A stretch of DNA of 32,000 nt, taken from the NCBI GenBank assembly GCA_963841015.1, contig CAWJAX010000004.1, forward strand, positions 12,040 to 44,039, read 5' to 3'. Below are positions 2 to 27,894 of the stretch, one piece after another. The notes under the pieces were generated by a model, which was given only the letters and a program-made list of their open reading frames with translations, did not search any database and had not been told where the DNA came from. Both the position numbers and the translations under genes were made by a program. Position 1 is the stretch's first letter. The number at the start of each line of letters is the position of its first letter. This DNA is from an uncultured Methanoregulaceae archaeon (GTDB lineage Archaea; Halobacteriota; Methanomicrobia; Methanomicrobiales; Methanospirillaceae).

Positions 2-895
2 AAGAAGACCACGGTTCTTGCCCGCATCCTCCCGGAGCACAAATACCGGGTGGTGAAGGTGCTGCAGGAGCACGGGGAGATCGTGACGGTGACCGGCGAC
101 GGTGTGAACGATGTGCCGGCGCTCCGGGCCGCCGATCTCGGCATTGCCATGGGCTCCGGCTCGGAAGCGGCCAAGAGTGCGGCCAAGATGGTGATTGTGG
201 ACAACAATCTCTCGGTCATCGTTGATGCAATCCGGAACGCCCGGGTGATCGTAGACAACATCCGCAAGGTGATCTATTACCTGATATCGACCTCGATCAC
301 CGAGATCGTACTCATCAGCACAACCGTCTTTGCCGGTCTCCCGCTCCCGCTCCTTCCCATCCAGATTCTCTGGGTCAACCTTGTCACAGACGGCGTGCAG
401 GACAAGACGTTCCCCTTCATTAAAGAAGAGGGGAACGTGATGGCCCGGCCCCCGAAAGACCCCGCAAAACAGTTCTTTGATGGCAGGCAGACGCGCCGTA
501 TCATGACCTTCGGTCTGGTCATGGGAGCCCTTGCAGCGGTCATGTTCTGGTACCTTCTCGGAAGATACCCGTACGAACTTACCGTATCGATCATATTCAC
601 GTCTGTTGTCTGCTTGCAGTGGTTCAACGGCCTCCAGGCCCAGCTGGAACACGAGCCGTTCCTGCTGGACATCAAAAAAAGCCTCACCATCAACCCGTAT
701 ATCTTCTATGGTATCGGCGTGGGCATCGTGCTCCAGCTGATTGCCATCTATATTATTCCGGGAGTATTCGGTGTTGTTCCTCTCGCCCTCGAACACTGGG
801 TATATGTAATCGCACTTTCACTGACTGCGTTCTTTGTCGTTGAAGCGATCAAATGGCTGGAGTACCGGGGCAGTCATCCGAAGGTCCCTATCTGA
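2..895 (+). CDS. P-type (P2-like) cation-transporting ATPase, C-terminal part; the 5' end lies outside the window
   Basis: The frame is open from the window edge (KKTTVLARILPEHKYRVVKVLQEHGEIV precedes the tracked ORF). It has the hinge motif VTGDGVNDVPALRAADLGIAMG followed by several hydrophobic helices typical of the Cation_ATPase_C region. Confidence 0.9.
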   Translation, partial: KKTTVLARILPEHKYRVVKVLQEHGEIVTVTGDGVNDVPALRAADLGIAMGSGSEAAKSAAKMVIVDNNLSVIVDAIRNARVIVDNIRKVIYYLISTSITEIVLISTTVFAGLPLPLLPIQILWVNLVTDGVQDKTFPFIKEEGNVMARPPKDPAKQFFDGRQTRRIMTFGLVMGALAAVMFWYLLGRYPYELTVSIIFTSVVCLQWFNGLQAQLEHEPFLLDIKKSLTINPYIFYGIGVGIVLQLIAIYIIPGVFGVVPLALEHWVYVIALSLTAFFVVEAIKWLEYRGSHPKVPI

Positions 896-5017: not shown

Positions 5018-5270
5018 GAAGAAATTTTTGTAAAACCCCATTTTTTAGACCACCGTCAGAAAAAACGATCCTTATATTCGGATTCCGGAAGCCTTTCCGG
5101 GATCCGGTGGGGTAAATTAGGTGGCAAAAATCACCTCGATTTAATGGCCTTTGGTGGCTTTTCAGTGAGGTACAAATCAGCCGTATTTTGGCAAACAGGC
5201 GTAAACCTCTGTTTCAATACACACCGAAACGGACGTTATTACGGGGTTTCCCGGATCAATGTCAGGAAAG
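5018..5270 (+). repeat. Intergenic repeat family, copy A (3' portion diverged or truncated)
   Basis: It aligns by eye with 9617..9948 and 24982..25256. Shared blocks are GAAGAAATTTTT..., TTAGGTGGCAAA, TTTAATGGCCTTTGG, TTCAGTGAGGT(A/G)CAAATC(A/T)GCCGTATTTTGGCAAACAG and ACGGGGTTTCCCGG. Confidence 0.75.
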
Positions 5271-9616: not shown

Positions 9617-9948
9617 GAAGAAATTTTTATAATAATCCTTTTTTTATCAACCATCGGAAAAAACGAGCCTCATATTCTCGTTCTGGCTGGGTTTCTGAGG
9701 CCAGGATGGGATAAGTTAGGTGGCAAAGTTCTCCTCAATTTAATGGCCTTTGGCGACCTTTCAGTGAGGTGCAAATCTGCCGTATTTTGGCAAACAGAGC
9801 GAATATATGGCGTATTTTCCACAGGAACCGAAAAGGAGCATAATCCAGAGATTTCAGAATTTGTCCGGTATAAAAGACGGAAAAACGGAGCCCAATTTGG
9901 GCTTATTTCCCCATTGATACCATTATCCCTCATAGCATCTTTTCCTGT
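9617..9948 (+). repeat. Intergenic repeat family, copy B (longest copy)
   Basis: It fills the convergent gap between 8697..9560(+) and 9971..10693(-). It shares the 5' blocks with copy A and the 3' blocks with copy C (GACGGAAAAACGGAGCCCAATTTGGGCTTATTTCC versus GACGGGAAAAGGAGTCCATTTTGGGCGTATTTTC). It contains the near-palindrome AGCCCAA-T-TTGGGCT. Confidence 0.8.
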
Positions 9949-9970: not shown

Positions 9971-10693
9971 CTAACCGTAAATCGTAATGATATAGTATAT
10001 CCCGACTACGATGAAAACCAAAGCAACCGCCCTCCGGATCCAGACCTCCGCTATTCCTATTCTCTGCACAGTTCCTTTGCACTTTCCTGCGCCTTTTACA
10101 AGAAGATATGAAATTAGAATGACCGGCAATCCTGTCGCAAGTGCGAACACCGCCGGGATGACCAGCGGATCCCCCGCACCAATCGCGAGCGGGATGAGCA
10201 TGGCAAAGAAGAGTACGGCGGAAAACGGACAGAAACTCAGCGCAAAGATAACCCCCAGCAGGAATGCCCCCAGGTATCCCTTGTCTGCAAGCCGTGCCGG
10301 TATCCCGGACGTGAACCCGGAGAACCAGTCTCCTCCGGGAAGCCGATCGAAATGGAAGATATCGAGAAGATAAATGCCGCACAAGACCAGGAACGGTCCG
10401 AGCAGAAGTTCCCCGTAATGCTGGAGTCCCAACGCCAGGGTCTGGAGATTCATCCCAAAGAATACAATAGCTGATGCGACTGCGATATACGCCGCCATCC
10501 TGCCGAGGGTGTACACGAACCCGGTGAGCAGGGTATGACGGCTGTTGTCAATCCTCTTCGAGATATAGGCAATGGCGGTGATATTGGTCGCAAGGGGGCA
10601 GGGGCTGATAGCGGTCATCAGCCCGAGGAAAAAAGCGGCAATAACAGGGACGGGGCTTTCCCCCATCGTCCCGAGAAATTGCAGGAGATCCAT
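9971..10693 (-). CDS. DsbD_2/CcdA-like membrane protein (ArsG-family-like permease or thiol-disulfide transporter)
   Basis: 240 aa with about 6-7 TM helices. Conserved Cys residues sit in helices (AISPCPLATN and ALSFCPFSAVLF), as in CcdA/DsbD-type proteins. It is the last gene of a tightly packed arsR operon, with a 1-nt gap to the upstream gene. Confidence 0.75.
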   Translation of the reverse strand: MDLLQFLGTMGESPVPVIAAFFLGLMTAISPCPLATNITAIAYISKRIDNSRHTLLTGFVYTLGRMAAYIAVASAIVFFGMNLQTLALGLQHYGELLLGPFLVLCGIYLLDIFHFDRLPGGDWFSGFTSGIPARLADKGYLGAFLLGVIFALSFCPFSAVLFFAMLIPLAIGAGDPLVIPAVFALATGLPVILISYLLVKGAGKCKGTVQRIGIAEVWIRRAVALVFIVVGIYYIITIYG

Positions 10694-10694
10694 T

Positions 10695-11195
10695 TCAGGT
10701 GAGATCCCCGTTCAGGCGCCGTGAGATAACATTTGTGAGATATGCCTTGTATTTCTCTTTATCCCCGGTCAAGTACCAGACGTCCATATTCTGTTGCCGG
10801 TGAAAACCGTTGGTATCGTAAATTCCAAACCAGAGTGAGGACCCGGTCACACCATATTTTGCTGAAAGGACAGCGTTCTCCGGCAGATCATAGTTGACAT
10901 GCGCAAAGACAAGTCGGCCTGAAACAAGTTCGTCTTTGAAATTGGCATTCACTGTTTTTTCCGCGAGGTCCCCGACTGCGATGCAGGATGAACACTGGTT
11001 GTTGCCATGAAAGTGGTAGATCTCCACCCGTTCAACGGAGCTGTTGATACCCGTTGCTCCGGGTGGTGATGTGTACTGCTGATTGACGGCAGGTAATTTC
11101 GCAGGCGAAGTGCACCCGGCTGCTAAACCGCTAGCAACAATCAGGGCGATAAACAATACTACCAGGTAAATTCGTTGAAGGTCTGTCATAATCAC
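10695..11195 (-). CDS. Secreted or lipoprotein thioredoxin-like CxxC protein (ArsF-family-like, naming from memory)
   Basis: 166 aa with a signal peptide and lipobox-like LAAGC. It has the motif YHFHGNNQCSSCIAVG (CxxC). The GTG start overlaps the upstream stop (GTGA). Confidence 0.65.
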   Translation of the reverse strand: MIMTDLQRIYLVVLFIALIVASGLAAGCTSPAKLPAVNQQYTSPPGATGINSSVERVEIYHFHGNNQCSSCIAVGDLAEKTVNANFKDELVSGRLVFAHVNYDLPENAVLSAKYGVTGSSLWFGIYDTNGFHRQQNMDVWYLTGDKEKYKAYLTNVISRRLNGDLT

Positions 11196-11467
11196 TCGTT
11201 ATCCGCAAGCAGCGAACGCATCACACCGGAAACTTCTGAAGACAGGTCGTCAGTTTGTATCAGCGAGAGGCAGCAGATAGTATCCTCCTTCATCCAGCTG
11301 ATAAGAGCAAGCTTGTCACCGTCTCTGATGTTCGCTTTTTTCCGGATCTCTTTGGGAAGCACAATCTGCCCCCGGTTATCCATTGAAAGTACTGCTTCGA
11401 CCTGGCACGCCAGATTGCTATCAGATGTACAAGATCTGTCTGAGCGGTTTGGGTTCATTTGGGTCAC
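11192..11467 (-). CDS. AbrB/MazE/SpoVT-type looped-hinge-helix DNA-binding protein with a vicinal Cys pair
   Basis: 91 aa. The SpoVT_AbrB signature is RGQIVLPKEIRKKANIRDGDKLAL, followed by EDTICCLSLI. The GTG start overlaps the arsR stop (GTGA). Confidence 0.8.
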   Translation of the reverse strand: MTQMNPNRSDRSCTSDSNLACQVEAVLSMDNRGQIVLPKEIRKKANIRDGDKLALISWMKEDTICCLSLIQTDDLSSEVSGVMRSLLADNE

Positions 11468-11850
11468 GCACTCTCATAAGCGAACTTCTGTCCCTTCTCT
11501 GTAAGCCGGTAGATGATCCAGTTACCATGCTGTTCTCCTTCTATAAGATCAACTCTTTTAAGCCCCGTGAGATGGTACGAGAGTTTCGAATCTGCAATTC
11601 CAATACAGTCCTTGATAATGCAGACACAGAGCGGCTGGATGGCAAGCAGGTAGAGGATAGTCAACCGGACAGGATCGGAAAGTGCGTTATGTATCGCGCT
11701 CATCTCCATGATATTTTTTGGTTTCGGCAGGTGTCTGCACAGCCCATTCACCCCTCCGACTGCATCGAGATTACAGGGTACTGAAGCGGGTATATCTATC
11801 CTGTGCACGGCCTCCTTTTTGGATTTTACCGCTGGTCTTTTTATCATCAA
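11464..11850 (-). CDS. arsR: ArsR/SmtB-family metalloregulator (CVC metalloid-site type)
   Basis: 128 aa with the HTH_5 core ALSDPVRLTILYLLAIQPLCVCIIKDCIGIADSKLSYHLTGLKRVDLI. The CVC lies at the start of the recognition region, as in As(III)-responsive ArsR proteins. Confidence 0.9.
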   Translation of the reverse strand: MMIKRPAVKSKKEAVHRIDIPASVPCNLDAVGGVNGLCRHLPKPKNIMEMSAIHNALSDPVRLTILYLLAIQPLCVCIIKDCIGIADSKLSYHLTGLKRVDLIEGEQHGNWIIYRLTEKGQKFAYESA

Positions 11851-11919: not shown

Positions 11920-11935
11920 TTCAATTAAATTTGAA
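11920..11935. promoter_or_regulatory. Palindrome TTCAA-TTAAAT-TTGAA, candidate ArsR operator in the arsR/ATPase divergent region
   Basis: It is a perfect 5+5 inverted repeat with a 6-nt spacer. The same TTCAA-N6-TTGAAAT architecture recurs at 15430..15445 upstream of the second arsR. A TATA-like CTATAAATAT lies at 11891-11900. Confidence 0.4.
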
Positions 11936-12117
11936 ATTTCCTGAATGAGGATGACGAATAGTGGCTCTCTGTGAAGGATGCGTTGGGTGGGGCGAGGATC
12001 CCCCGGCTCTTTTTTTGAAACGGCAATAATTTTGGAAATATTTCGCTTAAGATACAGAATTGGAAATCTATCTTTCAAAATCACGATGATATCGGATTAA
12101 CAAAGAGGAAAATATCC

Positions 12118-14420
12118 ATGGATAAAAACGATCTTAAACCGGCGATTGAGACAGTCACGCTCCAGATTGGTGGAATGGACTGTACCTGCAACGCCGATCT
12201 GCTAGCCAGAAAACTGGATGCTCTCACCGGCATCCGTAGCCACGAGATTACGCCGGTTACCGGCCAGGCCCGGGTCAGCTACGATCCCGAGGTTATCAGC
12301 GTCCAGGAAATCATAAGGACCGTCGCGGAGGCGGGGATGACAGCCTCACAGATCCGCAGCGAGGGACGGACGAGCACCTGGTGGCGGGAGCCACAGCAGC
12401 TGGCACTCTATGGTTGCGGGATTATCGCCCTCATCGCGTTCATCTCGGGCTACTCCGGTGCTCCGATCCTTGTCACCAATGGGCTCTACCTGCTCGCCGT
12501 CATTGTCGGGGTCTACTACCCGGCACGGAAGGCGCTGATCGCACTTCGCGCCATGACGCCAACGATCCACCTGCTCATGCTGATCGGCTCGGTCGGCGCG
12601 ATGGCACTCGGACTCTGGGGCGAAGCTGCTGTCCTGATCTTCGTCTACTCGCTCGGCGACGTCCTCGAGTCCTATGCCGTGGACAAGGCCCGCGGTGCGA
12701 TCCGGTCGCTCATGGAGCTGATGCCGAAAGAGGCGCTGGTCAGAAGAAACGGTTGCGAGTCTGTCTGTGCGGTTGAGTCGATCGGTGTCGGCGAGGTTGT
12801 CATCGTTCGTCCGGGCGAGCGGATCCCAGTCGATGGCACCGTTGTCGCAGGGTCGTCTTACGTAAATCAGGCTGCAGTTACCGGAGAGCCCGTGCCGGTA
12901 CGGTGCGAACCCGGCTCTGATGTTTTCGCCGGGACGATCAACCAGAACGGGTCTCTCGAGGTCCGGGTCACCAAGCCGGCGTCCGAGACGATGCTCTCGC
13001 GGATCATCCTCTCGGTTGAGGAGGCACAAGCACAGCGGACCTCGTACCAGCGGTTCTCGGACTCCTTCGGAAAATGGTATACGCCGGCAATGTTCGTCCT
13101 CGGCATACTCGTCGCCACCGTACCGCCGCTCTTCTTCGGCGCCGAATGGTACCCGTTCATCTACCGTGGGCTCGTTGTCTTCGTGGTCTCGTGTTCATGC
13201 GGTCTCGCCCTCTCGGTCCCCGTCGCAGTGGTGGGAGCGATGGCAAACGCAGCAAAGCAGGGAACGGTCTTCAAAGGCGGGGTCTATCTCGAGACGGTCG
13301 ATAAGGTGAAGGTGATCGCTTTTGACAAGACCGGGACCCTTACCATCGGCCGTCCTGCGGTTACGGATGTTGTAACTTTCGGTGATCTCCGGGAGGATGA
13401 ACTGCTCGACCTTGCCGGATGCATCGAGTCCAGATCCGGCCACCCGTTGGCAGCCGCAATCGTCCGGAAGGCTAAAGAAAGCGGTAAGTTCTCAGCCAGA
13501 CCTGCCTGAGAACTTCGATGAGATTGCAGGACGTGGGGTCTCGGCCACTATCGATGGACAGGCCTTCCGGATCGGCAGCCCCAGTGCCCTGCTCGAACAG
13601 GGTGTTGATACCCGCCGGGCTGAAGAAGACATTGTCCGGCTTGAGAACGAAGGCCGGACCGTTGTCCTGGTCAGTCGCGACGGTTCGCTCGCCGGACTTA
13701 TCGCGATTGCCGATGAAGTGCGGGCCGGTGCAGTCGAGGCCCTGCAACGCCTCTCCCGTGCCGGTGTCCGGACCATCATGCTGACCGGTGACAATGAGCG
13801 GAGTGCGCAGGCTATCGCACACCGTATCGGCGTTGACGAGTACCGGGCCCATCTCCTGCCAACTGACAAGGTCGACGTTGTGCGGCAGCTCAGGAAACAG
13901 TACCGGACCGGTCGCCATGGTTGGCGATGGGATCAATGACGCACCGGCCATGGCCGTTGCGGATGTCGGTATCGCCATGGGTGCGGCAGGCACGGATATC
14001 GCGATCGAAGCCGGGGACATTGTCCTGATGTCCGACGACCTCGGAAAGATCGCGTACGTCCGGGAGCTCTCCCACCGGACCGTTTCCACGATCCGGCAGA
14101 ACATCGCTGTCTCATTGATCAACGTCGCGTTCATGGTTATCGCAGCCCTCCTTGGTTACCTCGGTCTGGTCACGGGCTTGCTCCTCAACGAGGCGAGCGC
14201 TGTCTTTGTGATCCTGAACGCCCTGCGGTTGCTGAAATGGAAGAGCCCGGCAGATACCGGGAAACCGGTGGTTACGGGAGTAACTGTCACCGCTCAAGGC
14301 AAACCGAAACGGTTCCGATGGAAACGCTGGCGTCACCCGCGAATGGGGGAACCTGCTGTTCCTGCACGGAGACAACCCCGGTTGTGTCAAAGTCAATCCC
14401 AGAAACCACTAGTGCGGTAG
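12118..14420 (+). pseudogene. Heavy-metal (P1B-type) translocating ATPase with an N-terminal HMA domain and an atypical CSC TM motif; interrupted by at least 2 frameshifts
   Basis: Three consecutive ORFs (12118..13509, 13382..13939, 13788..14420) carry successive P1B parts. These are the HMA domain (GGMDCTCNADLLARKL), the TM core with VVSCSCGLALSVP (13192-13200) where CPC is normally found, DKTGTLT, HPLAAAIV, MLTGDN and [14 protein letters not shown], followed by the last TM helices. Frame changes occur at about 13470-13510 and about 13903-13910. Confidence 0.85.
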
Positions 14421-14788
14421 AATCCTGTTGTTCCTGCACAGCCTCACTCGCTGAAGCACCGGCCCCGGTTGCAGAGGTTGCAAAAAGTTCCTGTTGCTGT
14501 TCCAGTGAGGCACAACCGACCGGAGCATCCGCTCCTGTTCCTAAGACCAACAATGCGAATGAACCGGGGGCATTGGAGATTGCAAAGTTCCGGATCGAAG
14601 GGCTTGGTTGTTCCTGTGAAGGCCAGATCGTTGAGAAGCAGGTAAAATCTCTTCGTGGGATTGTCAGCTTTCGGTCTGAACCCCATCACCAACAAAATGA
14701 AGGTCAGTTACGATCCCTCGATAGTTTCTATCCAGGATATTGAAGCAGCGGTGACAAAAGCGGGTGTAACTGCCATACCCTTGAAGTA
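14318..14788 (+). pseudogene. Cys-rich (3x CC[S/C]C) protein with a C-terminal HMA domain (GCSCEG metal site), carrying one frameshift; it is either a separate metallochaperone or the C-terminal domain of the ATPase
   Basis: The sequence reads [18 protein letters not shown]...ESCCSCTA...SSCCCSS...AKFRIEGLGCSCEGQIVEKQVKSLRGIVSF. After a TTT run (14669-14671) the HMA fold continues in another frame: GLNPITNKMKVSYDPSIVSIQDIEAAVTKAGVTAIPLK*, with the stop at 14786-14788. Confidence 0.65.
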
Positions 14789-14860
14789 AAAATGACGTAT
14801 CAAAAACATGGGCAGGGAATCATCTGGCCAGATACTTGTAGACTGATGTATTATTCCATA

Positions 14861-14972: not shown

Positions 14973-15371
14973 TTACTTCTCCAGACGTTCTGTGCACTTC
15001 AGCGCCTGGCGCCCATTATCAGTGATGGAATAGATGATCCAGTTTCCCTGTTGTTCACCGACAATGAAGTCCTGTTCTTTAAGGATGCTGAGGTGATAGG
15101 ATAGTTTTGAGTCTGCAATTTTAACGACCTCTTTAATGACACAGACACAAAGCGGCTGGGAAAGAAGGGAGTACATAACGGTGAGCCGGATAGGGTCCGC
15201 AAGTGCCTGGTGGAGCCGGCTGCTTGCATGAAGTGCAGATGCATCTGGTATCCGGGCAAGAAGTCCTTCCATCCCTCCTTTTTTTTCGAGTTCTTTTTGT
15301 ATAGTCTCCGGGAGATCTTTGGAAAATTCGCAGCATTTTTCCTTCATGGAAGGCGTCCGTTTCCGTGCCAT
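14973..15371 (-). CDS. arsR: ArsR/SmtB-family metalloregulator (second copy, CVC type)
   Basis: 132 aa with ALADPIRLTVMYSLLSQPLCVCVIKEVVKIADSKLSYHLSILKEQDFI. It is a close paralog of 11464..11850 in the HTH region. An N-terminal KCC pair is present. Confidence 0.9.
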   Translation of the reverse strand: MARKRTPSMKEKCCEFSKDLPETIQKELEKKGGMEGLLARIPDASALHASSRLHQALADPIRLTVMYSLLSQPLCVCVIKEVVKIADSKLSYHLSILKEQDFIVGEQQGNWIIYSITDNGRQALKCTERLEK

Positions 15372-15429: not shown

Positions 15430-15445
15430 TTCAAGAAAATTTGAA
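15430..15445. promoter_or_regulatory. Palindrome TTCAA-GAAAAT-TTGAA, candidate ArsR operator in the arsR2/permease divergent region
   Basis: It is a perfect 5+5 inverted repeat with a 6-nt spacer, sharing half-sites and the flanking AAT with 11920..11935. It lies 59 nt from the arsR2 ATG and 71 nt from the permease ATG at 15516. Confidence 0.4.
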
Positions 15446-15515
15446 ATCTTTGCTGCACATGCAGCGGGAACACGATTCAACAGATTGCATACCCCAATGA
15501 GAGGTGAATAATCAC

Positions 15516-16586
15516 ATGACAGATCCCATAACCGGCTCACTCCTGCTGGGGTGGACAACGCTGCTTGAGTACCTCTCGCAGCATGTCGTCACCTGCCTGA
15601 TCCCGGCGTTCTTTATTGCCGGTGCTATCGCATCTTTTATCAAAAAAGAAGCGATCCTGAAATACTTCAGCCCGGAAACGAAGAAGACCACTTCCTACGG
15701 GATTGCTTCGGTGTCAGGTACCGTGCTTGCTGTTTGCAGCTGTACGATTCTCCCGATGTTTGCCGGAATTCTCAAGAAAGGAAGCGGGCTTGGCCCGGCA
15801 ATCACATTCCTGTACGCGGGACCTGCGATCAATATCCTTGCCATAGTCTATACCGCAAAAGTGCTCGGGTTCGATCTCGGTATCGCCCGGGCAGTATCAG
15901 CAATCGTACTCTCGATTGTAATCGGTCTGATCATGATGAAACTGTTTCCACAGCATGACGTGGATACCACAAAAACGTTTGGCGCCGCCCGGAAAGCGGC
16001 TATCGCATGTGCGGACACCCGGCCCAATTGGGTCATTCCGGCATTCTTTATCTTCCTGATCGCGATCCTTTTGATCGGTACGTCAGCGCTGGATGTTTTC
16101 CTCAGGCTCCTGATCGTGTACTTCCTCTCCATGGCTGTTGCCTTCCTGTTGATCTACTATTTCACCCGTGAAGAAGTCACTGACTGGGGATATGAGATCT
16201 GGGACCTGACCAAGAAGATTTTCCCCATCCTGGTCATCGGTACATTCGCCCTTGGGGTCCTTGCATTCTTCATCCCCCCGGAGACGTTCAAGCCGTTCTT
16301 CGGTACCAACTCGCTGCTGGCCAACTTCCTCGCAGCCTTAGTCGGAGCAATTCTCTATATGCCCACCTTGCTTGAAGTGCCGGTCATCGGCACAACACTA
16401 GGCTATCTCTCTGGTGACATGGCAAAAGGCCCGGCTCTCTCCCTGCTCCTCACCGGCCCGAGTATCAGCCTGCCGAGCCTTCTGGTGCTGTACCGGATTA
16501 TTGGCGGAAAGAAGACCCTTGCATATGCCGGCCTGGTTGTTGGGTTTTCGACAATGGCCGGTTTCATATTCGGGAATTTTTTCTGA
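15516..16586 (+). CDS. Permease of the DUF318/ArsP-like family (vicinal CSC in a TM helix)
   Basis: About 356 aa and polytopic. It has VLAVCSCTILPMFAGILKKG, which resembles the Cys-x-Cys motif of ArsP-type organoarsenical permeases. The ATG at 15516 is preceded by GAGGTGA; the track's alternative start is GTG at 15504. Confidence 0.8.
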   Translation: MTDPITGSLLLGWTTLLEYLSQHVVTCLIPAFFIAGAIASFIKKEAILKYFSPETKKTTSYGIASVSGTVLAVCSCTILPMFAGILKKGSGLGPAITFLYAGPAINILAIVYTAKVLGFDLGIARAVSAIVLSIVIGLIMMKLFPQHDVDTTKTFGAARKAAIACADTRPNWVIPAFFIFLIAILLIGTSALDVFLRLLIVYFLSMAVAFLLIYYFTREEVTDWGYEIWDLTKKIFPILVIGTFALGVLAFFIPPETFKPFFGTNSLLANFLAALVGAILYMPTLLEVPVIGTTLGYLSGDMAKGPALSLLLTGPSISLPSLLVLYRIIGGKKTLAYAGLVVGFSTMAGFIFGNFF

Positions 16587-16598
16587 GGTGAAGAACAT

Positions 16599-16859
16599 AT
16601 GAGCGATGATAAACCCTGCTGTGCCGCTGACGCGCTCCGGCGCATACGGCAGGTGAAGATTAACGGGATCCTGACGGGTATCACACTGCTCGATGAGAGC
16701 ATTGCAGAAATACGAACGCAGAACTATGGGAGCGAACCGGAGATCCGTGTCGCTCTCCTGAAGAAGATCCGGATCTACAATTACGTTCCCAAAAGCGTTG
16801 AAGATGAATATGCAAGGATCCTGATGGAAGAATATAAAAAAGCCCTCGCAAAAAACTAA
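16599..16859 (+). CDS. Hypothetical 86-aa protein with an N-terminal CC pair
   Basis: MSDDKPCCAADALRRIRQVKINGILTGITLLDESIAEI... The ATG lies 13 nt after the permease stop and is preceded by GAGGTGAAG. I recognise no family. Confidence 0.55.
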   Translation: MSDDKPCCAADALRRIRQVKINGILTGITLLDESIAEIRTQNYGSEPEIRVALLKKIRIYNYVPKSVEDEYARILMEEYKKALAKN

Positions 16860-16892
16860 TACAAAAAAATTTGAATAACTTCTGGAGATACC

Positions 16893-17129
16893 ATGACAAA
16901 AATCGAAATTCTCGGAACCGGGTGCGCCAAGTGCAAACGGCTCTTTGCCAATGCCGAGCAGGCAGTAAAGGACCTGAAGATTACGGCAGACGTGGTCAAG
17001 GTTGAGGACCTGGATGCGATTGTCGAGGCGGGTGTCATGCTGACACCTGCACTCTTCATCAATGGCGAACTGCGGGCTGAAGGCCGGGTTCCCTGTGTGG
17101 AAGAAATCATAGCAATGCTTAAGGAGTGA
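16893..17129 (+). CDS. Thioredoxin-fold redox-active disulfide protein (MTH895/TM0996-like)
   Basis: 78 aa: MTKIEILGTGCAKCKRLFANAEQAV...TPALFINGEL. It has a CxxC active site and the size of that family. Confidence 0.85.
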   Translation: MTKIEILGTGCAKCKRLFANAEQAVKDLKITADVVKVEDLDAIVEAGVMLTPALFINGELRAEGRVPCVEEIIAMLKE

Positions 17130-17599
17130 AAAGAGTGGCAGAAACACCAACATGTTCATGTGGACAAAACGAACCGAAACGGATAATCTTTCCCTGTGCC
17201 GGGCAGGCTAACACCGGGCAGCTTACGAACCTTGCAGCTATTCAGCTGACGGAAGAAGGCTACGGGAGTATTGCCTGTGCTTCGCTGCTAGCAATCGGTT
17301 CTGAAGGTCTGGTTAAGAATGCAAAGGATGTCGATGAAGTTCTCGTCCTCGACGGCTGCCCTATGATGTGCGGCAAGAAGATTGCAGAGGCGCAGGGTGT
17401 GCCGGTGGGACAACACCTTGTCATGACTGAACTCGGTATCACCAAAGGGCCGTCGAAATCCTATACCGAAGCTGACGTCGAGAAGATCGTTGCTGCGTGC
17501 TGGAAGGGAGAAGGCCGGAAGAAGGATGCAGCAAAACCGGGAAAAAAGAGCGGTGGAAACGACAGCGGGTGCGGCTGCGGGTGTGGCGGGACCTGCTGA
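17126..17599 (+). CDS. DGC-domain putative zinc-binding protein with a C-terminal Gly/Cys tail
   Basis: IIFPCAGQANTGQLTN...VLVLDGCPMMCGKKIA matches the DGC-domain pattern. The C-terminus reads GGNDSGCGCGCGGTC. The start may be GTG at 17126 or GTG at 17135 (AAGGAG lies upstream). Confidence 0.75.
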   Translation: MKRVAETPTCSCGQNEPKRIIFPCAGQANTGQLTNLAAIQLTEEGYGSIACASLLAIGSEGLVKNAKDVDEVLVLDGCPMMCGKKIAEAQGVPVGQHLVMTELGITKGPSKSYTEADVEKIVAACWKGEGRKKDAAKPGKKSGGNDSGCGCGCGGTC

Positions 17600-17624
17600 T
17601 TGCGGATAGTGAGCACCGGGGCGG

Positions 17625-17929
17625 ATGGAAACGACCGAAGAAGACGAGATGCGTACCTGGGCTGAAGAGTACGCAAAAAAGAATGGCTGGGTGCTGAACC
17701 CGGATAAGAAGATACTGGATACCGTCATCCGGGGGCTGGTCCGCAATAAGAAGAAATTCGGAGAGCAGTACTGCCCGTGCCGGCTCGGTCCGGGGACAAG
17801 GAGAAGGACCGGACGATCATCTGCCCATGCATCTACCATAAAGACGAGATCGCACAGGACGAGCACTGCCACTGCCAGCTCTACTATCGGAAGAATGACG
17901 CCGAGCAGATGAAACGGGAGAAGAAGTGA
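17625..17929 (+). pseudogene. Ferredoxin:thioredoxin reductase catalytic-subunit-like protein, carrying one frameshift
   Basis: The tracked ORF gives ...KKKFGEQYCPCRLG, then nonsense. From about 17787-17790 another frame reads SGDKEKDRTIICPCIYHKDEIAQDEHCHCQLYYRKNDAEQMKREKK*, with the stop at 17927-17929. This completes the CPC...CPC...CHC signature of FTR catalytic subunits. Confidence 0.75.
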
Positions 17930-17945
17930 CCTGAGGTCAATCCGT

Positions 17946-18356
17946 ATGATACCACCACGATACAAGCGTCTGGAGATTGAATGGAAACATTTCGCGGTTG
18001 GCGATGCAACCTGTGAGCGATGCGGGAATACCGGTGAAGCGCTCAAAGAGACTGTCGAAGAACTAAAGCGTGAGTTTGCTCCTGCAGGAGTGAAGATCAA
18101 CCTGACCGAGACGCTCCTTGACAAAACACGCATAGCGGAGTCAAACGAGATCCGGATGAACGGGATGTTGATCGAAGACCTGCTCGCTGCCGGGGTTGTT
18201 TCGACCGACTGTCCTTCCTGTGGTACACTTGCGGGGGAGAGTACCTGCTGCCGGGCGATAGAGATTGACAATGAACGATTCGAGGATATACCGGCAGAAA
18301 TGATCAAGAAAGCAGTGTACCTCGCATTGAGCATGAGCACCCCTTCTAAAAAGTGA
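17946..18356 (+). CDS. DUF2703-like Cys-rich protein (family name from memory)
   Basis: 136 aa with cysteine motifs CERCG, CPSCG and CCR. It lies directly upstream of acr3. Confidence 0.65.
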
Positions 18357-18393
18357 ACTAACTATTGAAGAAAAAAGGCATCCAGGATTACGT

Positions 18394-19470
18394 ATGACAA
18401 CGACAAAACAACTCTCCTTCCTTGACCGCTACCTGACCCTCTGGATTTTCCTTGCGATGGCTGTCGGTATCGGTATTGGGTACTTTTTACCTGCGGTACC
18501 GCTCGTGATTACGGGCCTTTCGGTCGGGACAACGTCGATTCCGATTGCCATCGGGCTCATCCTGATGATGTACCCGCCGCTCGCTAAGGTGAAGTACGAG
18601 GAGCTTGGGAAAGTGTTCCAGGATCGGAAGGTGCTGGGCTTATCGCTCGTCCAGAACTGGATTGTCGGACCGGTACTGATGTTTGTCCTTGCCGTCATCT
18701 TCCTCCGCGACCAGCCAATGTTCATGTATGGCCTGATCCTCGTCGGCATTGCCCGCTGTATCGCGATGGTTATTGTCTGGAATGATCTCGCTGAAGGCGA
18801 CTGTGAGTACTGTGCTGCTATTGTGGGCCTGAACTCGGTTTTCCAGGTCTTTTTCTACTCGGTCTATGCATGGTTCTTCATCACCTACCTGCCCCCGCTG
18901 CTTGGCATTGGGACGGGTTCTGAGGTCTCGATCACGATGCTCCAGATTGCCGAGAGTGTCTTCATCTATCTCGGCATCCCGTTCATTGCCGGCATTGTCA
19001 CGCGTTATATCCTGATCCGCGTGAAATCAAAGGCGTGGTACGAACAGGTATTCATCCCGAAGATCTCCCCGATTACGCTGATTGCCCTGCTCTTTACGAT
19101 CATCGTGATGTTCTCCCTGAAAGGGGAGTATATTGTCAACGTCCCCCTTGCTGTCGTCCAGGTTGCAATCCCGCTGCTCTTCTACTTCGTCATCATGTTC
19201 TTTGCGAGCTTCTGGATGTCCTGGCGTCTCGGTGTTGATTACCCTAAGTCGGCATCGCTCTCATTCACGGCGGCATCCAATAACTTCGAGCTTGCAATTG
19301 CAGTTGCCATTGCTGTCTTTGGCATTGCATCACCAGCGGCATTCGCCACGGTGATCGGGCCGCTTGTCGAAGTGCCCGTTCTGATTTCACTCGTGAATGT
19401 CTCGTTCTGGCTTAAGAAGAGATGGTATGGCGGGAAGAGTGATGATACGTGCAGCCCTTCGTTACGGTGA
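18394..19470 (+). CDS. acr3: ACR3-family arsenite efflux permease
   Basis: 358 aa. The N-terminus [25 protein letters not shown] and the conserved [13 protein letters not shown] segment are typical of ACR3. Confidence 0.92.
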
Positions 19471-19486
19471 AAAAACAGGTGGTCTG

Positions 19487-19900
19487 ATGAAAAAGAAAGT
19501 CTTGTTTATCTGCACCCATAACTCGGCCCGCTCACAGATGGCAGAAGGGTATATGAAGGCAAAGTATGGTGACCGCTACGAAGTATCCAGTGCCGGAACT
19601 GAAGTAACCCGGGTCCACCCGATGGCAATTGAGGTCATGAAGGAGATTGGAATCGACATCACCAGTCACCGTTCGAAACTAATCGATGAGTTCTTCGGTA
19701 AAGGAATAGGTACCGTAGTGACGGTCTGCGATTCTGCACAGAAAGCCTGTCCGTTTTTCCCGGGTGCAAAGGAAGAAATTCACCGGAGTTTTCCGGATCC
19801 TTCGGCATTTAATGGGTCTGATGAGGAGATCCGGGCCGGGTTCCACCGCGTGAGAGATGAGATTATCCAATGGATCGATGAATATTTTACAAGAAGGTAA
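19487..19900 (+). CDS. arsC: Arsenate reductase, LMW-PTP type (thioredoxin-coupled class)
   Basis: MKKKVLFICTHNSARSQMAEGY contains the CX5R(S) P-loop. VVTVCDSAQKACPFFPG supplies the second and third catalytic Cys of the pI258-type enzyme. I chose the ATG at 19487 rather than the tracked upstream start, which overlaps acr3. Confidence 0.92.
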   Translation: MKKKVLFICTHNSARSQMAEGYMKAKYGDRYEVSSAGTEVTRVHPMAIEVMKEIGIDITSHRSKLIDEFFGKGIGTVVTVCDSAQKACPFFPGAKEEIHRSFPDPSAFNGSDEEIRAGFHRVRDEIIQWIDEYFTRR

Positions 19901-19904
19901 AACC

Positions 19905-20741
19905 ATGACTGACGAACACGAAATACGGAAACAAGTACGGAAAAGCTACGCAAAGGTTGTTGAAGGGAGTAGCGGATGCAGCTGCGGCCCAAATTCCTCT
20001 TGCTGTGGCGGAGCGACAACGGCAGAACAGATAAGCGCGAAGGTCGGCTACTCAGCCGAGGAGATGGGGGCTGTCCCGGAGGGGGCAAATCTCGGCCTCG
20101 GGTGCGGGAACCCGCTTGCCCATGCAGCGATTCATGAAGGGGACACAGTCCTAGATCTGGGATCCGGTGCCGGGTTCGATTGTTTCCTTGCTGCCCGGAA
20201 AGTCGGAAAGACAGGACGGGTTATCGGGGTTGACATGACGCACGAGATGCTGCTGAAAGCACGGGAAAATGCGAAAAAGTCGGGTGCAACCAATGTAGAG
20301 TTCCGGCTCGGGGAAATCGAAGCCCTGCCGGTTGCTGATAACTCCGTTGATCTTATCATCTCAAATTGTGTTATCAATCTCTCTCCTGACAAGGCGAGAG
20401 TCTTCCGCGAGGCATTCCGGGTGCTGAAGCCGGGGGGATTGCTCATGGTTTCAGATATTGTCCTGACCCGTGAACTTCCGGAATCAGTGCGTACTTCGAT
20501 GGAAGCCTATGCCAGCTGCATCGCGGGTGCGAGCCTGAAAGATGCCTATCTTGACCTGATCCGAAAGGCACATTTTTCCGATGTAGCGGTACTTGAGGAA
20601 ACCGCCGTACCTTTCGGGCTGGCAGTGGCAGACCCCCTTATAAAAGCAGGTTTTGAGTCCCTGTCCCTTTCGAAAGATGAATACACACAAATCACGGAAT
20701 CGGTGAAGAGTGTGAAGGTAAAGGCGATAAAAAGAAGATGA
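19905..20741 (+). CDS. arsM: Arsenite S-adenosylmethionine methyltransferase
   Basis: The N-terminus has SGCSCGPNSSCCGG, the SAM motif VLDLGSGAGFDCFLAA is present, and conserved Cys residues occur in SNCVINL and YASCIAGA. The ATG at 19905 lies 5 nt after the arsC stop. Confidence 0.9.
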   Translation: MTDEHEIRKQVRKSYAKVVEGSSGCSCGPNSSCCGGATTAEQISAKVGYSAEEMGAVPEGANLGLGCGNPLAHAAIHEGDTVLDLGSGAGFDCFLAARKVGKTGRVIGVDMTHEMLLKARENAKKSGATNVEFRLGEIEALPVADNSVDLIISNCVINLSPDKARVFREAFRVLKPGGLLMVSDIVLTRELPESVRTSMEAYASCIAGASLKDAYLDLIRKAHFSDVAVLEETAVPFGLAVADPLIKAGFESLSLSKDEYTQITESVKSVKVKAIKRR

Positions 20742-20774: not shown

Positions 20775-21140
20775 GTGAGAGAAATTACTGACGAAAGTCC
20801 ATTGATCCTTATCACCTGCTCGGGTGTTTCCAATACCGGGAAACTGACGGCACAGGTCGCGGGAATCCTTGCGCAGAAAGAACCGGATCTCTTTGAGGGG
20901 CACGTGCATGTAAAGCAGTCCACCCGCGATATGGAAGCGGTAATCAATGGTGGTAAGGTGGTGGTGATTGACGGATGCGGAGATCGGTGTGCAGCAAAGA
21001 AACTCAAAAGTTTTTTCATTACCCCCCATATCCATATCATCGCGACTGAAGAGGGAATCGAAAAGAACGGAATGGGTGACCCGAAGTTCGAAGAGATTGA
21101 AACGCTCATCGCGGCGGTTCGCAGGGAAGTTCGGCGATAA
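20775..21140 (+). CDS. DGC-domain putative zinc-binding protein (second copy)
   Basis: 121 aa: LILITCSGVSNTGKLTAQVA...VVVIDGCGDRCAAKKL. It has the same architecture as 17126..17599 but lacks the Gly/Cys tail. Confidence 0.7.
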   Translation: MREITDESPLILITCSGVSNTGKLTAQVAGILAQKEPDLFEGHVHVKQSTRDMEAVINGGKVVVIDGCGDRCAAKKLKSFFITPHIHIIATEEGIEKNGMGDPKFEEIETLIAAVRREVRR

Positions 21141-24991: not shown

Positions 24992-25256
24992 GCCTCATAT
25001 TGGCGTTCTGGCAGGGTTTCTGAGGTCCGGAGGGGGTAAATATGTGGTAAAAACAATCTCGATTTAAAGTCCTTTGATGGCCAATAGGCGAGGTGAAAAT
25101 CTGCCTTAATTTGGCAAACAAAGCGAATATTGGGCATATTCTCCATACGAAACGAAAAGAAGCGTTTTACGGGTTTTTCCGGTATTGGTAAAATATATCT
25201 GGACGGGAAAAGGAGTCCATTTTGGGCGTATTTTCTCTCATGGCACTTAGCATCCA
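24982..25256 (+). repeat. Intergenic repeat family, copy C (5'-truncated relative to A and B; begins at the HxlR stop)
   Basis: GAAAAAATGAGCCTCATATTGGCGTTCTGGCAGGGTTTCTGAGG aligns with copy B GAAAAAACGAGCCTCATATTCTCGTTCTGGCTGGGTTTCTGAGG. The alignment continues to ...TCATGGCACTTAGCATCC, just before the stop of 25259..25744(-). Confidence 0.75.
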
Positions 25257-25911: not shown

Positions 25912-25934
25912 AACTGCCAGTGGAAGGATGCGTT

Positions 25935-27894
25935 ATGACCGAAGAACCAAAACCCCAGCTGATACGGGAGAAGCTCGATGTCTGCGAGCTCGATAAAGCC
26001 CGAATGGCAATCCTGAATCCTGCATTAATTGAGCAGAAGAAGAATGATCGTACAATCGACGAGAATGCTAAACCAGTCCTTGAACTGATGTTGCGGGAAG
26101 GCATCGAGACGGTCTGGGACCGGTTCGAGATGCAACAGCCTTCGTGTAAATACTGTCTTGCCGGAACATCCTGTTCGCGCTGTACCATGGGACCCTGCCG
26201 TATCATCCCGCCTAACCGTATCCGTGGTGTATGCGGTGCAGATGCCGACCTTATCGTTTCCAGGAACCTCCTGGACCTGATAGCAACCGGTTCCGCAGCC
26301 CATTCAGACCACGGCAGGGACATTGCTGAAACGCTCTATCTCGTAGGTACGGGGAAAACCAAGGATTACACCATTTCTGATCCGGTAAAACTTAAACGAA
26401 TATCAGAAGAGTTTGGGATAAAAACTGACGGGAAAAAACCAGAGCAGCTCGCTGCCGAGCTTGGCGGGGCCATGCTGGATGAGTATGGTATGCGAAAGAA
26501 TACCCTCCAGTTTCTCAACCGTGCCCCGAAAGCGACACGGGAGATATGGACAAAACTGGGCATCACCCCCCGGGGGATTGACCGTGAAGTGGTAGATTCG
26601 ATGCACCGCGTCCAGATGGGTGTTGGTGCTGACTATGTCAATATCCTGCTCCAGGGGCTGCGTACCAGTCTTTCTGATGGATGGGGCGGCTCGATGATCG
26701 GCACCGAGGTGTCGGATATCCTGTTTGGCACACCGACAATACAAAGCTCAACGATGAATCTTGCAGTCATGAAAGCAGATCATGTGAACATCTCGGTGCA
26801 TGGTCATAACCCGGTGCTCTCTGAAGTAATCGTGAAGGCGGTAGCTGATCCAGAGATGAAAGCACTCGCGCAAAAATACGGTGCAAAAGGAATCAATCTT
26901 GTCGGGATGTGCTGCACGGGCAGCGAACTGCTGATGAGAAAAGGCGTCCCGATGACCGGTAACCATCTCAACCAGGAACTGATCATTGCAACCGGCGCCC
27001 TTGAAGCGATGGTGGTGGACTACCAGTGTATTTTCCCATCGCTTCCCCGGACCGCAAGCTGTTTCCATACCCTGATCATATCAACAAGTTCGAAAGCTGA
27101 CGATACCTGGTTCGTACTTCTTCGACTTCCACGCTGAGGATGCATATCTGACAGCAAAAGCAATCGTGCGGATGGCAGTGGAGAATTTCAAGAACCGGAA
27201 CCCGCAGCGTGTCCTTATCCCGGGAGAACCCGTACCGGTTATGTCAGGATTCTCCAATGAGGCGATCAAGAACGCACTTGGAGGTTCATTTAAACCACTG
27301 ATCGACCTTATCGCTGCTGGCAAGATCCGGGGAGCAGTAGGCATTGTCGGGTGCAACAACCCGCACATTAAGCATGATTCCGGCCACATCGCTCTCACAA
27401 AAGAACTCATTAAGAAGAACATTCTCTGTGTTGAGACCGGTTGTGCTGCAATCGCATCAGGAAAAGCCGGGCTGCTGAGACCAGAAGCTGCATCGCTCGC
27501 AGGTAATGACCTCCGGGCGATATGTGAATCTCTCAAAATCCCCCCGGTGCTCCACATGGGCTCCTGCGTTGACAACTCCCGTATTCTCGTGCTCGCTGCT
27601 GAACTTGCCAATGCCCTCAACGTCCCGATCCATAAGTTACCTATCGCAGGTGCGGCGCCGGAATGGTATTCACAGAAAGCTGTCTCTATCGGAGCATACT
27701 TTGTTGCATCCGGTGTCTACACGGTGCTCGGGGTGATGCCTCATATCTCCGGAAGTCCTCCGGTAGTATCGCTGCTCACCGAAGGACTGAAAGGTGCCGT
27801 TAATGCGAGCTTTTCCGTTGAACCGGATCCGGTCAAGGCATCTGTGCTTATATCGGACCACATCGAACGCAAGCGGACTGAGCTCGGGATTTAA
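25935..27894 (+). pseudogene. cooS: Anaerobic Ni-Fe carbon monoxide dehydrogenase catalytic subunit (CooS), carrying one frameshift
   Basis: ORFs 25920..27137 and 27166..27894 are contiguous CooS parts. Conserved elements are CKYCLAGTSCSRCTMGPCRI, GVCGADADLIVSRN, SVHGHNP, GMCCTGSE, IVGCNNP and MGSCVDNSR. The second frame is open back to 27076 (…KLTIPGSYFFDFHAEDAYLTAKAIV), placing the frame change at about 27094-27100. Confidence 0.9.

Follow-up and report, generated by a model that had tools for sequence, protein, structure and literature searches.

The stretch of DNA analysed here, a window of 32,000 nt from contig CAWJAX010000004.1 (assembly GCA_963841015.1, uncultured Methanoregulaceae archaeon; all positions are those of the window), carries on its plus strand at 12118..14789 a gene that almost certainly encodes a complete P1B-type ATPase of the CSC subfamily, P1B-7, the class being assigned by the CSC motif in transmembrane helix 4 (TM4). 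Genes of this family lie next to arsenic genes across phyla: ACR3, ArsC or ArsM were detected by tblastn within 10 kb of the ATPase at 41 of 80 species loci, whereas the identical test applied to 80 metagenome loci of the nearest CPC-type (P1B-2-like) relatives was positive in only 4 cases. We consider it an even call whether the pump exports As(III)/Sb(III)-type species under the control of ArsR. The ATPase is a new member of a known orphan class, and its categorical novelty is accordingly low. What is new is the statistically supported cross-phylum link to arsenic genes, which is not seen for the nearest CPC pumps.

The gene was delimited by six-frame translation, Pfam searches and alignment to P0001, an intact 891-aa metagenome protein that shares 94% amino acid identity with the repaired ATPase over the full length. 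In the assembled sequence, the open reading frame (ORF) is spread over three reading frames and five segments (12118-~13505, ~13506-13903, ~13904-14310, ~14311-14665 and ~14666-14789), a matter addressed further below. Its fragments match the HMA, E1-E2_ATPase and Hydrolase domains of Pfam, and joining of the frames yields a product of ~887 aa. The stop codon is located at 14787-14789, placing the gene end at 14789 and not at 14788 as given in an earlier note on this DNA. The repaired translation contains the phosphorylation motif DKTGT (Asp403; 13324..13338) along with AVTGEP (TGE, A domain), SGHPLA (HP, N domain) and VGDGINDAP (GDGxNDxP hinge), none of which varies in the family alignment. 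TM4 reads VVSCSCGLALSVP and harbors the transport-site motif S-C-S-C (13189..13200; Cys359 and Cys361) instead of CPC or SPC, the Cys-Ser-Cys part being encoded by tgt-tca-tgc at 13192-13200. TM6 carries the motif N-E-A-S (14187..14198), as opposed to D-x-G in P1B-2 and H-E-G-x-T in P1B-4 ATPases, as judged from alignments to 4umv and 7qbz. HMA domains are present at both ends of the protein. The N-terminal one (12148..12351; Pfam HMA E=9e-8) has a CxC instead of a CxxC site within the motif GMDCTCN, with Cys codons at 12181-12183 and 12187-12189; in comparison to GMDCAAC of ZntA, the second Cys comes one residue earlier. The C-terminal one (14581..14786) likewise possesses CxC (GLGCSC; CSC at 14609-14617) and is preceded by a Cys-rich linker (14240..14580), which is predicted to be disordered and contains the clusters CCSC (14354-14365), CCSC (14426-14437) and CCC (14492-14500). 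The Cys motifs described in the earlier note were thus all recovered, namely CSC in TM4, CxC in both HMA domains (GMDCTCN and GLGCSCEG), three CC(S/C)C clusters downstream, and further Cys-x-Cys motifs in both neighboring ArsR proteins (CVC) and in a PF03773 permease (CSC).

The position of the CSC motif within the transport site was assessed by phmmer alignment against all PDB sequences, which was also employed to compare the TM5 and TM6 sites. The query segment around VSCSCG aligns without gaps on GCPCA of ZntA (4umv), ASPCA of sCoaT (7qbz) and ACPCA of CopA (3j09). By these HMMER alignments, CSC occupies the canonical TM4 metal-site position, with Ser replacing the hallmark Pro, and a displaced CSC, which would have lowered the value of the observation according to the earlier note, was ruled out. 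The other helices differ from the Zn/Cd pumps, too: the position of Lys693 in TM5 of ZntA is Val here, with a neighboring Asn, and Asp714-x-Gly of TM6 is Asn-Glu-Ala, whereas HEGST of P1B-4 pumps aligns on NEASA. T-x5-QN of TM5, the distal N and the Glu of TM6 are retained in the CSC family. An AlphaFold2 model was made of P0001 (mean predicted local distance difference test score, pLDDT, 76). It features eight membrane helices (residues 92-112, 117-144, 150-163, 167-199, 309-340, 344-380, 642-678 and 683-705), the sixth of which, TM4, is broken at residues 358-360 (S-C-S) between helices 344-357 and 361-380. Thus, in the model the unwinding of TM4, which is normally credited to Pro, is still predicted in its absence. 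Residues 11-78 of the N-terminal HMA domain adopt the beta-alpha-beta-beta-alpha-beta fold and residues 822-890 of the C-terminal one a ferredoxin-like fold (pLDDT ~90), while the linker (residues 714-818) has pLDDT <50. Both HMA domains match Pfam and fold, but their metal loop is CxC rather than GMxCxxC. Foldseek returned ZntA (4umw), ATP7B, sCoaT (7qbz) and CopA (7r0g) as best matches of the model, with probability 1.00.

Conservation was evaluated in the best 120 matches from a library of 5.8 billion proteins, which are 58-94% identical to the query. The motif RGLVVFVVSCSCGLALSVP is invariant in 120/120 of these homologues, i.e. CSC is conserved far more than expected by chance. TM6 reads NEASA in 78 and NEGSA in 23 of them, and the N-terminal GM-x-C-x-C is present in 106. 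The C-terminal HMA domain is of the CxC type in nearly all long forms, whose tails contain 10.6 Cys on average. In a second library of 1.84 billion representatives, obtained by clustering at 50% identity, a single one (1423 bits) stands for the whole family, and the next one scores 724 bits. Among the next 149 representatives, TM4 carries CPC in 108, SPC in 26, APC in 2 and CSC in 7 cases. Where the N-terminus is complete, the seven divergent CSC representatives have an HMA domain of the CxxC type or none, and in the three of these groups in which the TM6 motif was captured (P0121, P0122 and P0124) it reads NE[GL]S. Hence, CSC in TM4 co-occurs with NE[AGL]S in TM6 in the core family as well as in P0121, P0122 and P0124. 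By sequence, the ATPase belongs to a tight, distinctive clade, in which both ends of the protein carry CxC HMA domains. This clade lies within a broader CSC group, whose members P0121, P0122 and P0124 have CxxC HMA domains or none.

These features do not coincide with any of the better known P1B signatures. The Pro of the CPx motif that is typical for TM4 of class P1B is Ser in all 120 relatives, which is the exception that defines P1B-7. P1B-1 pumps (CopA) are characterized by CPC in TM4, YN in TM5 and MxxSS in TM6; here, neither YN nor MxxSS is found, and TM5 reads SLINVAFM. The P1B-4 signature (SPC, HEGxT) is replaced by CSC and NEASA. From the P1B-2 motifs, which comprise CPC in TM4, T-x5-QN-x7-K in TM5 and D-x-G-x7-N in TM6 (PMC5960188), only T-x5-QN and the distal N are kept, while CPC is replaced by CSC, Lys by Val and D-x-G by N-E-A. 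The passages of three reviews that refer to the CSC motif, citing Smith, Smith & Rosenzweig 2014, define P1B-7 by this motif and describe it as poorly understood or of unknown substrate (PMC13460109; PMC7558416, Table 4; PMC4932525). CSC in TM4 and the general P1B architecture are common to that class and the present ATPase, which we assign to it by CSC alone. In the respective table entry the substrate is given as "Unknown" (PMC7558416), and according to the passage in PMC4932525 no P1B-7 member had been examined biochemically. The CSC-type subgroup of unknown substrate that the earlier note had mentioned can therefore be identified as P1B-7. These reviews cite P1B-7 in passing, and the passages concerned mention no link to arsenic genes; when the literature was searched for CSC pumps or for P1B pumps of arsenic, passing mentions were all that turned up. 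The earlier note had further cautioned that a conventional substrate might already be assigned to CSC homologues, which is not the case by curated NCBIfam thresholds. P0001 passes generic P1B subfamily models only, including the cadmium-family subfamily TIGR01512, and it stays below both ZntA equivalog cut-offs (594 vs 1005 and 511 vs 1240). The name 'Cd2+/Zn2+-exporting ATPase' attached to such genes is an automatic JGI label.

To survey the genomic context, one genome per GTDB species (185,579 species) was subjected to a pattern scan, which yielded 104 loci encoding the SCSC motif region. Neighbors were counted for the best 80 of these 104 species loci, all of which derive from anaerobe lineages. 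Carriers are found in the Methanomicrobiales, Methanocellaceae, Methanomassiliicoccus, Methanoperedens and Bathyarchaeia as well as in Clostridia, Actinomycetota, Deltaproteobacteria (Geobacteraceae, Syntrophaceae), Chloroflexota and others. Every ORF lying up to 10 kb from the ATPase was grouped into clusters without prior labels, and representatives of the clusters were annotated by Pfam. The commonest partner is an ArsR family (49/80 loci; median distance 245 bp), followed by a stand-alone HMA protein (24/80), ACR3 (23/80), ArsP_1 and DsbD-like families (15/80 each), LMWP ArsC (14/80), DGC (11/80), an AbrB/MazE-like family (10/80), an ArsF-like family (9/80) and ArsM (8/80). CDF, ZIP, MerR and CsoR are absent from the 20 commonest neighbor families of the 80 loci. 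By tblastn, DGC was detected near the CSC ATPase in 22/80 and DUF2703 in 17/80 loci, and neither was detected near the CPC controls.

Restricting the analysis to loci with at least 5 kb of sequence on both flanks raised the proportion of CSC loci with ACR3, ArsC or ArsM to 26/38 (Methanomicrobiales 8/10, Bathyarchaeia 7/8, other archaea 3/7, Bacteria 8/13), as compared to 1/19 well-flanked control loci. The difference between CSC and CPC loci is significant by Fisher's test for all loci (p=3e-11) and for the well-flanked ones (p=4e-6), with the limits that the controls come from metagenome contigs and the CSC loci from species genomes, that the queries were derived from methanogens and that the CSC loci are phylogenetically non-independent, all of which weakens the comparison. 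Despite these limits of the control, the contrast in ars association is large. Three of the nearest CPC relatives, inspected individually, have only ZIP, CDF or ArsR genes beside them. As a separate observation, in several Bathyarchaeia genomes (loci L063, L066, L067 and L076) the 10-kb surroundings of the CSC pump harbor two or three paralogues of P1B ATPases, which are interleaved with ArsR genes, small 4Fe-4S ferredoxins and a family of 198-aa membrane proteins that received no annotation.

The link to arsenic genes extends to operon-like arrangements and gene fusions. In six Methanoculleus/Methanomicrobiales genomes, among them those of the cultured M. palmolei DSM 4273 and M. formosensis Afa-1, the stop codon of the ATPase is followed on the same strand by the start of ACR3 at a distance of 29-153 bp, and at one Tissierella locus the order is ArsR-...-ACR3-ArsC-ArsM-ATPase. 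In one homologue, P0062, an N-terminal ArsD domain with a vicinal Cys pair is fused to the ATPase (Pfam E=8e-25), and the gene sits among ArsD, ArsR, ArsC and DsbD-like genes. A search with the N-terminus of P0062 for a second ArsD-ATPase fusion retrieved stand-alone ArsD, ArsD-GNAT fusions and HMA fragments only. Furthermore, ~11 of the 120 best homologues carry an N-terminal fusion to DUF2703, a thioredoxin-fold family that occurs in an arsenate-induced ars cluster of Rhodococcus (PMC6514093). Of the 24 loci with a stand-alone HMA gene (70-110 aa), 22 have it immediately next to the ATPase, and it encodes a CxC site in essentially all cases except for two Methanoperedens copies. Since a separate CxC-HMA gene adjoins the ATPase in other lineages, the C-terminal HMA domain of the window ATPase is read as the tethered form of a dedicated metallochaperone. 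The adjacent ArsR proteins mostly possess at least three Cys in one turn of the alpha3-helix (CVC..C, CDLCPC, CCDLCPC or LCCCE). By analogy, this layout would fit the S3 sites of As(III)/Sb(III) sensors, though it is not exclusive to such sensors.

What does the pump transport? The likeliest cargo appears to be a trivalent arsenic-group metalloid, i.e. As(III), Sb(III) or both, or one of their thiol or methyl derivatives, an assignment that we hold with about equal belief and doubt. The earlier note had guessed at a thiophilic metal or metalloid; the controlled cross-phylum survey of neighbors strengthens this guess, which remains inferential. In the mechanism we propose, ArsR1 and ArsR2, the two ArsR repressors with Cys-rich alpha3 helices encoded beside the ATPase, would sit on the AAATTT-N-AAATTT sites of the two divergent promoters and would be released when a soft, thiophilic element binds their Cys residues. 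The CxC thiols of the N-terminal HMA domain may then capture the element, as may the disordered CC(S/C)C linker together with the tethered C-terminal CxC-HMA chaperone domain. Subsequently, the element would be handed over to a membrane site formed by Cys359 and Cys361 of the unwound S-C-S-C of TM4, the Asn/Glu/Ser of TM6 (NEAS) and the Asn of TM5. As judged from the alignment, this site is devoid of the Lys and Asp residues that pair with divalent cations in Zn/Cd pumps. Phosphorylation of Asp403 (DKTGT) at the expense of ATP would power export. In this way, the pump could act as the primary, ATP-driven member of an arsenical island, whose ACR3, ArsP-like and ArsG-like permeases would handle other arsenic species, alongside ArsC and ArsM. 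More tentatively, and with somewhat less confidence than in the cargo of this pump, P1B-7 (CSC) ATPases might represent a dedicated class for trivalent arsenic-group metalloids, that is, ATP-driven exporters of arsenite/antimonite (or thio-/methyl-arsenicals) in strict anaerobes, which would be fed by CxC HMA chaperones and whose Pro-less site would have evolved for a non-cationic, thiol-bound cargo.

Several points weigh against a metalloid cargo. We infer the substrate from genomic context, and genes conferring resistance to different elements are often found in one island. Cd, Pb and Zn are likewise sensed by ArsR/SmtB regulators with CVC, as exemplified by CadC, and HMA domains, like Cys-rich tails, are a typical trait of cation pumps. 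Moreover, As(III) prefers three sulfur ligands, and the membrane site offers two Cys only. The ArsD domain of P0062 lacks the third As-binding Cys, and the fusion is represented by a single 90%-identity cluster. Finally, the divergent CSC groups P0121 and P0122 have ArsR neighbors but no ars genes, and therefore we claim the ars link for the core family only. The main rival explanation takes up these points. It states that the pump exports divalent soft-metal cations (Cd2+, Zn2+, Pb2+), as its nearest relatives do, and merely shares a multi-element island, with regulators resembling CadC/CmtR. Consistently, the closest solved or curated relatives are ZntA and the Cd/Co pump sCoaT (36-40% identity), the cadmium-family model TIGR01512 is passed, T-x5-QN of TM5 and the E of TM6 are kept, Zn/Cd pumps classically possess HMA domains and Cys-rich tails, and the N-terminal Cys of ArsR2 in conjunction with CVC in alpha3 resembles the alpha3N layout of CadC. 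The two divergent CSC groups that lack ars neighbors would also fit, and TtArsX, which is discussed below, provides the example of one pump serving both Cd and As. However, a mere sharing of islands does not readily account for the 41/80 CSC loci with ars genes when only 4/80 CPC relatives have them, nor for the absence of CDF, ZIP or CzcD-type genes among the frequent neighbors. The pump has lost the K and D of the P1B-2 cation site and stays below both ZntA equivalog cut-offs, ACR3 follows directly behind the ATPase in an operon-like manner, and the fusion partners are ArsD and DUF2703. Hence, we regard export of divalent cations as rather unlikely, though it is the alternative that has to be taken most seriously.

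A different cargo is suggested by the gene at 11192..11467 (minus strand), which encodes an AbrB-like, Cys-containing 91-aa protein of the 'HgcC' family. It passes the NCBIfam equivalog NF040962, 'HgcAB-associated protein HgcC' (100 bits, cut-off 70), and the HgcC-like family of small proteins recurs beside the ATPase in 10-13 loci. According to this rival explanation, the cargo is mercury, Hg(II) or Hg-thiol species, and the pump belongs to a mercury efflux or handling system of anaerobes without mer operons that is linked to hgcAB. Two-thiol CxC sites would suit linear coordination of Hg(II), hgcA lies ~6.6 kb away from the ATPase at the locus L044 of the Geobacteraceae, and the host lineages of the CSC pump presumably resemble known Hg methylators. 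In addition, hgcAB is reported to be under an ArsR-like regulator, whose possible link to arsenic resistance was put to the test (bioRxiv 10.1101/2022.10.17.512643). On the other hand, hgcA was detected near the ATPase in only 1/93 loci and is absent from the window, mer genes are not among the frequent neighbors, and the dominant neighbors are arsenic-specific (ACR3, ArsC, ArsM, ArsD), making a mercury cargo highly improbable. A general linkage to hgcAB was ruled out by the same count of 1/93 loci. Independently of the cargo, the HgcC-family neighbor and the hgcA gene of L044 hint at a connection between ars-type islands and mercury-methylation loci.

Comparison with known systems revealed relatives in sequence as well as in proposed function. 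ZntA/CadA (P1B-2; 4umv, 4umw) are the best-scoring characterized relatives (~37% identity) and share the 8-TM fold, T-x5-QN in TM5 and an N-terminal HMA domain with the CSC pump. In contrast, their CPC, Lys693, Asp714-x-Gly and CxxC HMA sites are replaced here by CSC, Val, Asn-Glu-Ala and CxC, and their genes reside in a Zn/Cd context instead of among ars genes. The top sequence match in the PDB is the P1B-4 pump of the sCoaT/CzcP type (7qbz, E=4e-120), whose TM6 motif H-E-G-S-T aligns on N-E-A-S-A with the Glu kept, whereas its SPC is exchanged for CSC and its His for Asn. P1B-4 pumps usually lack HMA domains, and the CSC family has two. TtArsX of Thermus thermophilus, a CPC P1B-2 ATPase, is needed for resistance to As and Cd according to genetic evidence (PMC5960188). 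It resembles the CSC pump in being a P1B ATPase that is under control of an ArsR/SmtB repressor and genetically tied to arsenic resistance. It differs in its canonical CPC, K, DxG and CxxC HMA motifs and in its location outside any ars cluster, and the evidence for its link to arsenic is genetic. AntA of Comamonas testosteroni is described as an Sb(III)-translocating P-type ATPase with the chaperone AntC and the ArsR-family regulator AntR (PMC12641948). By this description, AntA is likewise a metalloid exporter with an ArsR-family regulator and a small dedicated chaperone, paralleling the CxC-HMA gene or domain of the CSC pumps. Together with TtArsX, it sets a precedent for P1B pumps that deal with metalloids. 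An AntA-named model is not among the best 25 of the 34 NCBIfam matches of P0001. AntA is reportedly a Cu-type, P1B-1-like pump with CPC, for which the term P1B-8 is said to be used. The ArsAB/ArsD arsenite pump corresponds to the CSC pump in its proposed role, i.e. ATP-driven export of arsenite fed by a Cys-rich chaperone, and one CSC member is fused to ArsD. The proteins themselves are unrelated: ArsA belongs to the P-loop ATPases, ArsB works as a secondary carrier, and there is no phospho-aspartate cycle.

The earlier note had raised the concern that the gene might be dead in this organism. Alignments to the relatives L001, L082 and L083 located four private 1-nt indels in the ATPase gene (+1 near 13505, +1 near 13903, -1 near 14310 and +1 near 14665). 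Its only indel of more than 1 nt is an in-frame deletion of 6 nt within the variable linker, and nonsense codons are absent. Programmed frameshifting was ruled out, given four sites in both directions that are all private to this contig. Lesions of the same kind were observed in the close, syntenic contigs L001 and L082: in an 11-kb three-way alignment, the numbers of private frame-breaking 1-nt indels are 6 for the window (4 in the ATPase and 2 in an FTR-B-like gene), 8 for L082 (spread over the ATPase with 2, ArsP, an 86-aa ORF, DGC and ArsC) and 5 for L001 (2 in ACR3, 2 in ArsM and 1 in DGC). The two ATPase indels of L082 differ from those of the window. L001 and L082 stem from one ENA project with records named 'contig_N', and this naming suggests that they are, like the MFD metagenome-assembled genome (MAG) contigs, long-read (Flye-style) assemblies. 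L068, a Methanoregulaceae MFD MAG contig with the same naming style, also lacks a single ATPase ORF in its ORF map. In contrast, all cluster genes including a 908-aa ATPase are intact in the short-read-style relatives L083 (JGI) and L084 ('k141' contig). Substitutions in the ATPase core of the window lineage comprise 45 synonymous and 16 nonsynonymous changes (pN/pS 0.125), the pN/pS of the sister lineages being 0.06-0.09. Because the indels are private 1-nt events, the sister contigs are similarly hit, the short-read relatives are intact and pN/pS is 0.125, we attribute the frameshifts with considerable confidence to consensus or assembly errors rather than gene death, which largely removes the concern; the gene is most probably intact in this Methanoregulaceae-like methanogen.

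Two observations do not fit this explanation well. With CooS counted (see below), the ATPase has 4 of ~7 lesions of the window in ~10% of the coding sequence, which is more clustered than expected for uniform error: four indels fall within 2.7 kb, as against ~3 in the remainder of the 32-kb window, where the FTR-B-like gene has two and CooS one. In addition, the nonsynonymous count of the window lineage is slightly, albeit not significantly, above that of the sister lineages. Both would agree with a true pseudogene that was killed here by four frameshifts while the family is functional elsewhere, and so would the base composition, as the ATPase core (12118-14240) has 60.8% GC in comparison to 47.5-54.6% in 16 other window genes, suggesting acquired, perhaps dispensable DNA. 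However, three of the four lesions are insertions, neither nonsense codons nor larger deletions accompany them, pN/pS is low, and comparable 1-nt indels strike ACR3, ArsM, ArsP and DGC in the sister contigs. Death of the ATPase gene in this organism appears improbable. The GC outlier, taken together with the 60-75% identity between archaeal and bacterial members of the family, suggests that the pump has spread horizontally.

Further broken genes were observed. A CooS-like CO-dehydrogenase/Prismane gene is split into two frames (25920-27137, profile positions 2-306; 27166-27894, profile positions 330-512), probably by an assembly frameshift, and is followed by a gene for a CooC-like P-loop ATPase (27895-28806). 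The FTR-B-like (ferredoxin-thioredoxin-reductase-B-like) gene at ~17625-17929 (plus strand; Pfam/NCBIfam) is frameshifted by two private 1-nt deletions near 17768 and 17786; the L001 copy also reads frameshifted after FGEQ, and the 103-aa product of L082 is probably the intact form. From a P2-type (Ca/cation) ATPase, only the C-terminal part is contained in the window (50-895), and the corresponding gene of L001 (919-3503) is broken into three ORFs, which provides further evidence of indel noise in L001.

P1B-7 has been an orphan class since 2014, with its substrate listed as unknown in reviews from 2016-2026. The present analysis supplies a clear sequence definition of a tight sub-family (SCSC in TM4, NE(A/G)S in TM6, and CxC HMA domains or chaperones), and the family-wide ars association along with the CxC chaperone architecture makes the question of its cargo directly testable, all the more so as cultured carriers exist (Methanoculleus palmolei DSM 4273, M. 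formosensis Afa-1 and Tissierella creatinini BN11). With As or Sb as cargo, a primary pump would join the arsenic cycle of methanogenic, sulfidic environments like paddy soils, peat and digesters, and it would become clear how a P-type ATPase site works without the hallmark Pro. Should the reading as a metalloid class hold true, a substrate would be provided for the subfamily defined in 2014, which would then represent the first arsenic-translocating class of P-type ATPases. If Cd, Zn, Pb or Hg turns out to be the cargo, the orphan class would still be solved. Either way, the automatic 'Cd2+/Zn2+-exporting ATPase' labels on genes for CSC pumps are unsupported.

In the window, the ATPase gene is flanked by two genes for ArsR/SmtB repressors, which are both encoded on the minus strand. 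ArsR1 (11464..11850; Pfam HTH_5, NCBIfam HTH_metalloreg) is divergent from the ATPase and has the alpha3 motif LCVCIIKDC, while ArsR2 (14973..15371; Pfam, NCBIfam) combines an N-terminal vicinal Cys pair (KEKCCE) with LCVC in alpha3. The palindrome AAATTTGAAATTT is located in the divergent promoter region of ArsR1 and the ATPase (11927..11939), and a second copy, the half-palindrome AAATTTGAAAT, was found by sequence search between ArsR2 and the permease operon (15437..15447). The palindrome is kept upstream of the ATPase in four close relatives (L001, L082, L083 and L084). Thus, the shared operator-like palindrome proposed in the earlier note is present at both positions, the one upstream of the ATPase being conserved, but statistically it is weak when taken alone: AAATTTGAAAT has 4 matches at no more than one mismatch, and 7/100 shuffles equal that number. 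A generic search for inverted repeats in both intergenic regions yielded nothing stronger. We treat the palindrome only as a candidate operator, on the grounds of where it lies and of its conservation among close relatives.

Beyond ArsR1 and the gene of the HgcC family, the minus strand encodes an ArsF-family protein (nitroreductase subunit; 10695..11195; NCBIfam NF040494, 102 bits, cut-off 60) and an ArsG-family permease (9971..10693; NF040495, 268 bits, cut-off 200). On the other side, an ars-type operon spans 15504..20741 on the plus strand (Pfam, NCBIfam). It comprises genes for an ArsP_1 permease (PF03773; 15504-16586; Pfam, NCBIfam), the 86-aa ORF, an ArsE-family thioredoxin-like protein (16893-17129; NCBIfam), a DGC protein (PF08859; 17126-17599), the FTR-B-like protein, a DUF2703 protein (17946-18356; Pfam), ACR3 (18394-19470; 450 bits, reaching the NCBIfam equivalog cut-off), LMWP ArsC (~19490-19900; Pfam/NCBIfam) and ArsM (19857-20741; arsenite methyltransferase subfamily, 356 bits). 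Homologues of the ArsEFG organoarsenical system are accordingly split across both sides of the ATPase (9971-11195 on the minus and 16893-17129 on the plus strand). A second DGC-domain protein is encoded at 20775-21140, and both DGC proteins as well as the DUF2703 protein are rich in Cys.

Finally, the window contains a repeat in three copies (5108-5198, 9707-9797 and 25031-25121) of ~90 nt, or up to ~250 nt by BLAST, with 74-88% identity. It has no match in Rfam, in line with the scan of the whole window, which returned no matches, and its folding gives an unremarkable z=-1.8. Between the first two copies lies a 4.4-kb segment encoding a Na+/H+ exchanger-TrkA and a rubredoxin-FMN reductase. 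This segment is absent from the syntenic contig L001, and the two copies may therefore mark an insertion or deletion.

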